Part shown: one piece after another, positions 1-489 of the stretch
Layout of the letters: every line of letters starts with the position of its first letter
How positions within the stretch are numbered: position 1 is the stretch's first letter
Source: Escherichia coli
Lineage (GTDB): Bacteria > Pseudomonadota > Gammaproteobacteria > Enterobacterales > Enterobacteriaceae
DNA: 516 nucleotides
Strand: one strand, 5' to 3'
Assembly: GCF_003334815.1 (NCBI RefSeq)
Contig: NZ_QOWO01000129.1
The notes under the pieces: generated by a model
Database searches by the model: none
Seen by the model: the letters and a program-made list of their open reading frames with translations, nothing else
Told to the model about the DNA's origin: nothing
Program-made: the position numbers and the translations under genes

Positions 1-113
1 TATGCAAGATTTGCCTGAACAGCACGATTCTGCATGATGTCGATTTGTGCGATTGCGTCCTTCTGCTGATCACCGGTTGGCTGATAAGTGGTGTTAAAAG
101 AAAATGCGCTCAT
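1..113 (-). CDS. N-terminal ~37 codons of a protein-coding gene (hypothetical protein); gene continues leftward beyond position 1
   Basis: ATG at 113..111 on the minus strand, preceded by AGGAGG (118..123) with a 4-nt spacer. An in-frame stop lies upstream at 149..147, so this ATG is the first start in the frame, and the frame stays open to position 1. Translation: MSAFSFNTTYQPTGDQQKDAIAQIDIMQNRAVQANLA. I do not recognise the family. The plus-strand frame 3 is also open over 3..131 but gives a Cys-rich peptide with no start, so the minus strand is favoured. The gene is absent from the supplied ORF track, presumably because it is edge-truncated. Confidence 0.55.
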   Translation of the reverse strand, partial: MSAFSFNTTYQPTGDQQKDAIAQIDIMQNRAVQANLA

Positions 114-123: not shown

Positions 124-143
124 GTGTTTAATGTTTTCAGCCC

Positions 144-158
144 CCATCACCCGTTGAG
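144..158. repeat. Direct repeat copy 1: CCATCACCCGTTGAG
   Basis: Matches 220..235 (CCATCACCCGTTTGAG) apart from one extra T. The copies start 76 bp apart, in the region upstream of the minus-strand gene. Confidence 0.8.
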
Positions 159-172
159 TTTCGGGAGCCGCG

Positions 173-188
173 GTTTTGACGTTTTGCG
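173..188. repeat. Tandem octamer GTTTTGAC-GTTTTGCG
   Basis: Two adjacent 8-mers differing at one position. The second copy starts the TTTTGCGG motif that recurs at 327..334, as a variant at 503..511 and inverted at 293..300. TTGACG (176..181) resembles a -35 hexamer, but I found no convincing -10 at 16-18 bp spacing. Confidence 0.55.
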
Positions 189-219
189 GGGACCTGCCGT
201 TTGTTCCCTCCGGTATTAA

Positions 220-235
220 CCATCACCCGTTTGAG
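220..235. repeat. Direct repeat copy 2: CCATCACCCGTTTGAG
   Basis: 15/16 identity with 144..158, with a single T insertion. Candidate paired protein-binding sites; function not established. Confidence 0.8.
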
Positions 236-292
236 AACCTTCGCCGCAAGGGGCATCACTGCCACGACCGGAAACGACTGTCCGGGGGCAGA

Positions 293-334
293 CCGCAAAA
301 GTTTTTGCCTGCTTTTGGGCAAAAAGTTTTGCGG
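293..334. repeat. 42-nt imperfect palindrome / hairpin-capable inverted repeat
   Basis: Arms 293..311 and 316..334 pair as 293-300 with 327-334 (8 bp), one G/G mismatch at 301/326, 302-309 with 318-325 (8 bp), and two G-U wobbles at 310/317 and 311/316, around a CTTT loop (312..315). That is 16 Watson-Crick pairs. No U-tract follows on either strand, so it does not look like an intrinsic terminator; an operator-type dyad or RNA hairpin is more likely. Confidence 0.85.
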
Positions 335-339
335 GATGT
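327..339. repeat. Direct repeat TTTTGCGGGATGT (left copy; partner at 503..516)
   Basis: Near-identical to TTTTGCCGGGATGC at 503..516 with one extra C. The two copies flank the GC-rich domain. The core CGGGATGT (332..339) is also the reverse complement of ACATCCCG (489..496). Confidence 0.75.
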
Positions 340-489
340 ACATTTCACCCCTGGACTGGCGGAGACGGTTGTGGCTGTCTGTGCCCCCGGCGACAGGGAC
401 TCATACGGGTGTGTGGCACCGGACACAACAACGGGCAGGGACCCGCCGCAACGACGAAGAGCGCGTGCGCGAAACGGCGTTGCCCCTCA

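Follow-up and report, generated by a model that had tools for sequence, protein, structure and literature searches.

A 42-nt palindrome as the probable tip of an Frpo1/ssiD-type single-stranded DNA promoter in the leading region of an IncF plasmid

The 516-nt stretch of Escherichia coli DNA analyzed here (the window) raises the question of what a near-perfect 42-nt palindrome at positions 293-334 is for, as an earlier note made from the letters alone had considered it typical of an operator for a dimeric or tetrameric regulator. The left (5') arm of the palindrome on the + strand (293-309, CCGCAAAAGTTTTTGCC) and its right (3') arm (318-334, GGCAAAAAGTTTTGCGG) form 16 Watson-Crick pairs out of 17 around the 8-nt spacer TGCTTTTG, with G301·G326 as the sole mispair. 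An arm match of 16 of 17 with a loop of 3-12 nt was seen in one of 2000 dinucleotide-preserving shuffles of the window, so the 16 pairs and single central mismatch described in the note are borne out. As delimited by an inverted-repeat search and the pair ladder of the fold, the left arm consists of a CCGC clamp, the tract AAAAGTTTTT and a GCC clamp. The apical loop TGCTTTTG (310-317, + strand) is conserved solely among the IncF copies, and the right arm, which would be the non-template arm upstream of a -35-like hexamer, holds AAAAAGTTTTG at 321-331.

The symmetry of the palindrome is also nested, as the note had remarked, in that the 14-nt cores at 295-308 and 319-332 are each self-complementary at 12 of 14 positions. 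This nested symmetry is real but has no thermodynamic consequence: as single-stranded DNA (ssDNA) the palindrome folds into a long hairpin at -17.2 kcal/mol vs. -6.0 kcal/mol for two mini-hairpins, and we rejected the latter arrangement as energetically uncompetitive. The nesting arises because the A-tract/T-tract motif, A4-5 N T4-5, is its own near-complement, and a tetrameric binding protein is not needed to explain it. The note was right to set a terminator aside, and we exclude one, as no T tract is present past position 334 on either strand and a duplex scan for rho-independent terminators (a GC stem followed by a T/U tract) returned nothing at the palindrome. The note's placement of the palindrome at a boundary between GC blocks was roughly right but misleading, since the GC content falls to 0.48 at 271-360 from 0.53-0.65 on the left and 0.65-0.68 on the right, that is, the palindrome is an AT-rich dip inside a GC-rich hairpin.

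When positions 158-475 of the + strand were folded as ssDNA they gave one imperfect hairpin of ~318 nt (-113.1 kcal/mol, z = -8.16), a stability equaled by none of 100 shuffles. The inverted repeats of this hairpin (186-214 with 418-446, 224-240 with 395-411, and 245-255 with 382-392) are concentric with the palindrome at ~313-318, and because of this shared center the palindrome is the mere tip of the ~318-nt structure. The fold, the pair ladder and the identity to Frpo1 and D90178 mark 158-475 as a complete Frpo1/ssiD-type hairpin of the + strand, the transferred strand, when it is single-stranded. Thus the palindrome is real and far beyond chance, yet the element of which it forms the tip is a known one. 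The main hairpin is closely followed, 3' on the same strand, by a separate 9-bp GC-rich hairpin (490-515; CATCCCGGC/GCCGGGATG, 8-nt loop, no T tract), and small GC hairpins like it also end the ColIb, insect-metagenome and Salmonella members of the family. There is also an exact 12-nt direct repeat, CCATCACCCGTT, whose second copy (220-231) forms part of the left arm, where its partner is 397-411, and whose first copy (144-155) is just outside the hairpin base, where it could compete for the same partner to produce an alternative conformation.

The window is 92.5% identical to Frpo1 of the F plasmid (NC_002483) over 385 nt and 85.3% identical to Frpo2 over 407 nt, and its non-coding part matches ssiD D90178, which Samuel et al. 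(2024) include in their list of "known" Frpo and ssi elements. The element named ssiD in the accounts of Masai and Arai (1997) was subsequently called Frpo1 (Couturier et al., 2023), "class 1" (Wen et al., 2025) and ssp1 (Fraikin et al., 2026). As summarized in PMC9849209 and PMC7690428, Masai and Arai (1997) described how the 328 nt of Frpo, when single-stranded, form a stem-loop with reconstituted -35 and -10 boxes to which E. coli RNA polymerase is recruited, the transcripts also priming DNA synthesis; the same two summaries state that RNA polymerase and SSB suffice in vitro and that conversion to duplex shuts the promoter off. Early expression in transconjugants is abolished by deletions of Frpo1 and Frpo2 (Couturier et al., 2023), an Frpo-driven anti-CRISPR works solely from the T-strand leading region (PMC11541004), the predicted start sites of class-1 promoters of an IncI1 plasmid are matched by 5' RACE (PMC12672017), and transcripts from class-1 promoters prime duplex conversion in vivo (bioRxiv 10.64898/2026.01.09.698686). 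For the copy in the window, ssDNA promoter activity and a role in vivo would be expected by analogy with this literature on F Frpo and the ColIb ssi sites.

Having homology to F Frpo, a T-strand placement in the leading region and an imperfect hairpin of ~300 nt, the window shows three of the features expected of the Frpo class. We consider the palindrome to be almost certainly the apex of an Frpo element, and very probably the apical stem-loop of a class-1 ssDNA promoter of the Frpo1/ssiD type in the leading region of an IncF plasmid. The element was already known, and our analysis re-discovers the tip of a described promoter, for which we show identity, location, strand, fold, covariation, tract invariance and constant spacing.

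In complete E. coli genomes we identified 10,676 matches to the window (median of three per genome), of which 10,564 are on plasmids and 112 are chromosomal, and in PLSDB matches are present in at least 5,000 plasmids of Escherichia, Klebsiella, Salmonella, and Shigella. With so few of its places chromosomal, we rejected assignment of the element to the REP/BIME chromosomal repeats; it is a dispersed repeat of plasmid leading regions, present 2-4 times per plasmid, and the copies of IncI plasmids are known as dispersed repeats R1-R3 (PMC3817090). The note had set its stand-alone dyad against membership of a known dispersed repeat family, and such membership is what was found, so the stand-alone reading fails.

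The order of genes in the plasmid pO26_2 is traM, oriT, an SLT gene, a DUF932 gene, a gene for a 98-aa protein, the window, hok, psiA, psiB, a parB-like gene and ssb. The motif GGGTGT/GGTGCTTT, which we take to be the nick sequence of the F TraI literature, is on the + strand 2 kb upstream (5') of the window, at 9986-9999 of our sequence L001, and in F itself is found on the corresponding strand. Transfer starts at the nick and proceeds 5'-to-3' through the leading region, so the T-strand corresponds to the + strand of the window. This T-strand also serves as template for the downstream gene, which is encoded on the - strand. The 5' end of this downstream leading gene occupies 1-113 of the window (- strand; ATG, complement of 111-113) and encodes a hypothetical protein of 98 aa (MSAFSFNTTYQ...), whose N-terminus is identical to that of the annotated CDS WP_001272241.1 in pO26_2 and in which a Pfam scan detected no domain. 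A putative ribosome-binding site, AGGAGG (complement of cctcct, 118-123, - strand), can be read 4 nt upstream of the ATG.

The locus resembles that of F Frpo1 in its place (from the oriT-proximal DUF932 region to hok/flm), strand, long hairpin, apical palindrome and bulge. In the NC_002483 Frpo1 the left tract reads AAAATCTTT, making the palindrome of the F copy less perfect. A further difference is in what lies downstream, which in F is the 95-aa product of ygeA and here the 98-aa protein; the gene after the Frpo1-type copy here is unrelated to ygeA (window 1-113 on the - strand; L002 16033-16320), and from these differing downstream genes it follows that the same promoter module fronts different cargo among IncF plasmids. 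RefSeq places small "hypothetical protein" genes or pseudogenes wholly inside the Frpo hairpin, recurring with each repeat copy (window 137-343 on the - strand and 413-516 on the + strand; L001 12137-12343, 12413-12585, and 17992-18198), which resemble spurious gene calls made within structured, non-coding DNA.

For comparison we used 34 distinct elements, taken from 11 plasmid leading regions and the published list, that represent IncF, IncI1, Klebsiella, Enterobacter, Serratia, Pantoea, Salmonella, and Yersinia. The fold of the T-strand was more stable than that of the complementary strand in every one of the 34 (mean difference 13 kcal/mol; G·T pairs 241 vs. 107). In the alignment of the upper hairpin, whose fitting to a covariance model itself favors structure, 90.4% of cells are paired vs. 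79% in shuffles (none of 500 reaching the observed value) and 58% or less with slid partners, and compensatory changes are present at 17 of the 27 pairs. The covariance model detected 22 full-length copies in 300 kb, all of them in the T-strand orientation. This strand-specific folding and orientation-specific placement suggest a function as a single strand. A search of Rfam with both strands of the window identified no family at gathering score (chance miRNA matches were far below threshold), and the absence of a model for the Frpo/ssi hairpin is as expected because it is a DNA structure.

With a plus-strand template and transcription necessarily toward lower coordinates, it is the right arm, in the tip-to-base direction, that provides the non-template strand. 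This arm has a single conserved -35-like motif, CCCC followed by TGGACT (348-357, + strand), in which TGGACT (352-357) is our candidate -35, matching TTGACA at four of six positions and reading TGGACA in many relatives. Its left-arm partner, GTCCGGGGG (280-288, + strand), belongs to helix 1 of the alignment, in which 92.9% of cells are paired and six of nine pairs have compensatory changes. A patch of mismatches and bulges separated from this hexamer by 17 helical steps contains TGG followed by CTGTCT (372-380, + strand), a candidate extended -10 region whose hexamer matches weakly (2/6). F Frpo2 has an extra 3-nt bulge in its right arm, and its spacing is still 17 when counted on the continuous left arm. 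The exact -35 and -10 boxes are our own assignment, inferred here from the sequence; with these boxes the start site would fall near 387 of the right arm (template position ~250) and the leader would be ~135 nt. Mismatches at the -10 of Frpo are needed for the promoter, and the placement of the boxes fits both this need and the published boxes reconstituted in the stem.

A duplex scan of the window found no sigma-70 promoter, consistent with activity only when the DNA is single-stranded. Several other hexamers were considered and rejected. TTGACG (175-180) and TATTAA (214-219) of the left arm are 33 nt apart and absent from the ColIb ssi sites, TACATT of the bulge would lose its key A as a -10 in F Frpo1 (TGCATT), and TTGCCT at the end of the left palindrome arm has no suitably spaced -10 to serve as a -35. 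TTGACG and TATTAA (the latter in an internal loop) are kept in IncF, Serratia and insect copies and are outside the promoter model adopted here.

More distant relatives share the promoter-proximal parts of the hairpin to differing extents. In ssi1-3/Frpo1-3 of ColIb-P9 (IncI1; Bates, 1999; Nasim, 2004) only the upper hairpin can be aligned with the window (~78% over 111 nt). The parts in common are GTCCGGGGG, the A/T palindrome, a CAT-containing bulge and CCCCTGGAC, whereas ssi1-3 have an unrelated lower stem and flanks, a different loop and a shorter hairpin of ~177 nt. A second group, which we term type B to distinguish it from type-A copies such as that in the window, is ~70% identical to the window along the whole hairpin and has the same -35-like stem, bulge motif and mismatched -10-like patch; in it, however, the 42-nt A/T palindrome is replaced by GCGCGG-TTTA-CCGCG, a 5-bp GC mini-hairpin set directly on the -35-like stem. 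The type-B tip is present in 2,691 PLSDB records, mainly from Klebsiella and also from Yersinia pestis, often upstream of ssb, where type-B copies are found in Klebsiella, Yersinia, and Citrobacter plasmids. Examples are copies 1 and 3 of K. grimontii, those of Yersinia ruckeri, one Enterobacter copy and Frpo' 5/6 (Samuel et al., insect metagenome), and type-B relatives are at 14988-15375 and 22499-22888 of L128, 14984-15330 of L131 and 25351-25680 of L005. Type-A and type-B copies can share one plasmid. The palindrome cannot be essential to the family given these homologues without an A/T tract, which suggests that its role is accessory and modulating and not a core one. Absence from homologous loci, which the note had named as counting against its proposal, applies in part: the palindrome is absent in ~2,700 type-B elements and kept in the type-A copies.

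Between the palindrome and the -35-like stem the right arm alone has a 9-nt unpaired bulge, TACATTTCA (339-347, + strand; from the pair ladder). Its motif, T-R/Y-CAT-Y-T-C/A-A, is kept in IncF, IncI, Salmonella, Enterobacter, and Pantoea copies and in the type-B elements, and as it is retained even where the palindrome is lacking, the bulge is more conserved than the palindrome.

Within the palindrome, the A/T tracts differ from their surroundings in how they have been conserved. Each of their eight or nine A·T pairs is the same in 16-18 of 18 distinct copies that share only ~70% identity outside the tracts, while the GC clamp pairs next to the tracts switch among CG, GC, AU, and GU. Ascertainment, or gene conversion between copies, may account for part of the invariance of the tracts. 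Since the tracts are invariant while the clamps covary, it is sequence, and not pairing alone, that is conserved in the tracts. The central position of the palindrome is unpaired in 8 of 17 copies, mostly as G·G, which could be retained ancestry or a non-pairing that is tolerated or selected. Mismatches of the G301·G326 type recur in IncF, IncI, Enterobacter, Serratia, Pantoea, and Salmonella, and some copies have G-C or T-A instead. The spacing between the tract and the -35-like hexamer is also near constant. Counting along the continuous left strand, between the bases that pair with the start of the hexamer and with the first A of the tract in the right arm, we obtained 21-22 nt for 15 of the 16 copies with a correctly located tract; on the bulged right strand the range was 29-34 nt.

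The UP-element consensus credited to Estrem et al. 1998 reportedly reads NNAAAWWTWTTTTNNNAAANNN and spans -59 to -38, with rrnB P1 as an example, and its distal half is said to be AAAWWTWTTTT. The best matches to this distal half in the window are both arms of the palindrome, 9 of 11 at 321-331 (AAAAAGTTTTG) and at 297-307. A UP element is expected at -40 to -60 relative to the start site. Given the candidate -35, 22 steps along the continuous left strand place AAAAAGTTTTG at -57 to -47, and the linear distance on the bulged right strand places it at about -66 to -57; the former register holds only if the 9-nt bulge is extrahelical. The bases corresponding to the proximal subsite AAAAAARNR (-46 to -38) are CGGGATGCC, which do not match it. 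The resemblance to a sigma-70 UP element is thus of an A-tract and then a T-tract upstream of the -35, with the distal half in place on the continuous strand, and the differences are the folded single strand, the bulge before the -35 and the missing proximal subsite. From these sequence features we infer that the palindrome may serve as a hairpin cap together with a UP-like upstream element; for the UP-like role of the right-arm tract in particular, we regard the case as plausible but still tentative. An A+T-rich UP element upstream of the -35 was among the criteria by which Samuel et al. (2024) searched for Frpo candidates.

In the mechanism that we propose, the + strand of the window would enter the recipient during conjugation in the 5'-to-3' direction ~2 kb behind the relaxase, the left arm emerging before the tip and the tip before the right arm. 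The entering strand would fold into the ~318-nt hairpin and so mimic duplex promoter DNA, whereupon host sigma-70 RNA polymerase would take the right arm as non-template, using the candidate -35-like TGGACT (352-357) and the -10-like patch (372-380), and transcribe along the left arm until it reads into the leading gene beyond (ATG at 113). The same RNA could prime synthesis of the complementary strand, and the conversion to double-stranded DNA would remove the hairpin and turn the promoter off. In this scheme the palindrome would have two roles, the closing of the hairpin and the provision, some two helical turns upstream of the -35-like hexamer, of an A-tract/T-tract duplex (AAAAAGTTTT), which would most likely assist polymerase recruitment in the manner of a UP element or of bent upstream DNA.

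It is feasible that the palindrome does only the first of these, that is, that it is a purely structural cap which nucleates or closes the hairpin and whose A/T composition has no specific role. It is indeed more regular than any other helix of the hairpin (16 of 17 positions paired, small loop), its clamp pairs covary, and the presence of a GC-rich cap at the same place in type-B elements indicates that the cap is exchangeable. However, if pairing alone mattered the tracts should swap pair types, which in 16-18 of 18 copies they have not done; moreover, the central G·G is kept in many lineages, the 21-22 nt spacing to the -35-like stem is fixed, and an AT-rich stem is a poor nucleation clamp, leading us to consider a purely structural cap rather unlikely. 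A bolder reading is that the A/T dyad is a true sequence-specific docking module on the folded single strand, with A4-5-N-T4-5 kept in both arms whatever the pairing, the recurrent central G·G included, with 21-22 nt on the continuous strand up to the -35-like stem, and with the conserved 9-nt CATTTCA bulge looped out, a possibility that we would also call rather unlikely.

The operator favored by the earlier note can be framed here as binding of the dyad by a dimeric or tetrameric regulator, plasmid- or host-encoded (e.g., H-NS, IHF, or Fis on bent AT-rich DNA), that silences leading operons in the donor or tunes them in recipients. It gains something from the recurrence of the dyad upstream of 2-4 co-expressed leading operons per plasmid, from the conservation of its sequence and not of pairing alone, and from an HTH gene that adjoins one ColIb-P9 copy. 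No regulator gene is consistently linked to the dyad in the IncF, IncI, Klebsiella, Enterobacter, Serratia, and Pantoea loci, however, and the HTH regulator that the note had proposed to look for nearby is not a consistent neighbor in the 11 leading regions. Nor does the dyad occur as an independent site at several promoters, the regulon pattern that the note had proposed to search for, since all 14 matches across seven of the 11 regions (L001-L007, ~192 kb) are apices of Frpo-type hairpins, with no free-standing dyad among them. Together with the ~2,700 homologous elements that do without the dyad, and the sufficiency of polymerase and SSB in vitro with duplex conversion as the shut-off, as the summaries cited above have it, these results leave the operator without support and very improbable. 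When the generic dyad AAAANTTTTT-N6-16-AAAAANTTTT was searched in 100,044 species genomes, the matches listed were chance occurrences in AT-rich genomes, none of them Enterobacterales, the pattern being too loose to tell. The note's other suggestion, of a replication or transfer origin, came close, in that the element is a single-strand initiation (ssi) site and ssDNA promoter next to oriT. A cruciform extruded from the duplex palindrome might promote rearrangement between copies, and the copies are dispersed repeats, between two of which a 9.7-kb leading segment has been lost or gained in related IncI plasmids; Couturier et al. (2023) also pointed out the risk of recombination between Frpo1 and Frpo2. 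Yet homologous crossover spanning hundreds of bases, and not the tip, accounts for the IncI event, nothing ties breakpoints to the palindrome, and the strand-specific folding in 34 of 34 elements and orientation-specific placement point to a single-strand function, making a recombination hot spot the least probable of these explanations, and one we regard as extremely so.

Our preferred reading is thus of a known promoter whose tip both closes the hairpin and may present upstream DNA to the polymerase. A literature search found no further mechanistic work on the Frpo apex, and what our analysis adds to the described element is modest: the sequence constraint on the tracts, the fixed spacing on the continuous strand and a widespread sister variant without the tip. 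Together these raise the question of upstream-element recognition on a folded single-strand promoter. If the docking of a protein on the A/T dyad proved true, a UP-element-like (alpha-CTD) or architectural-protein site would for the first time have been shown to work on a hairpin promoter, and the split between type A and type B would be a built-in control of the strength or timing of zygotic induction for each leading operon. Resistance plasmids survive entry into a new host through a burst of anti-restriction, anti-SOS, SSB, and further establishment functions whose genes are driven by Frpo-type promoters, and because of this role in plasmid establishment the anatomy of the promoter is of practical interest.
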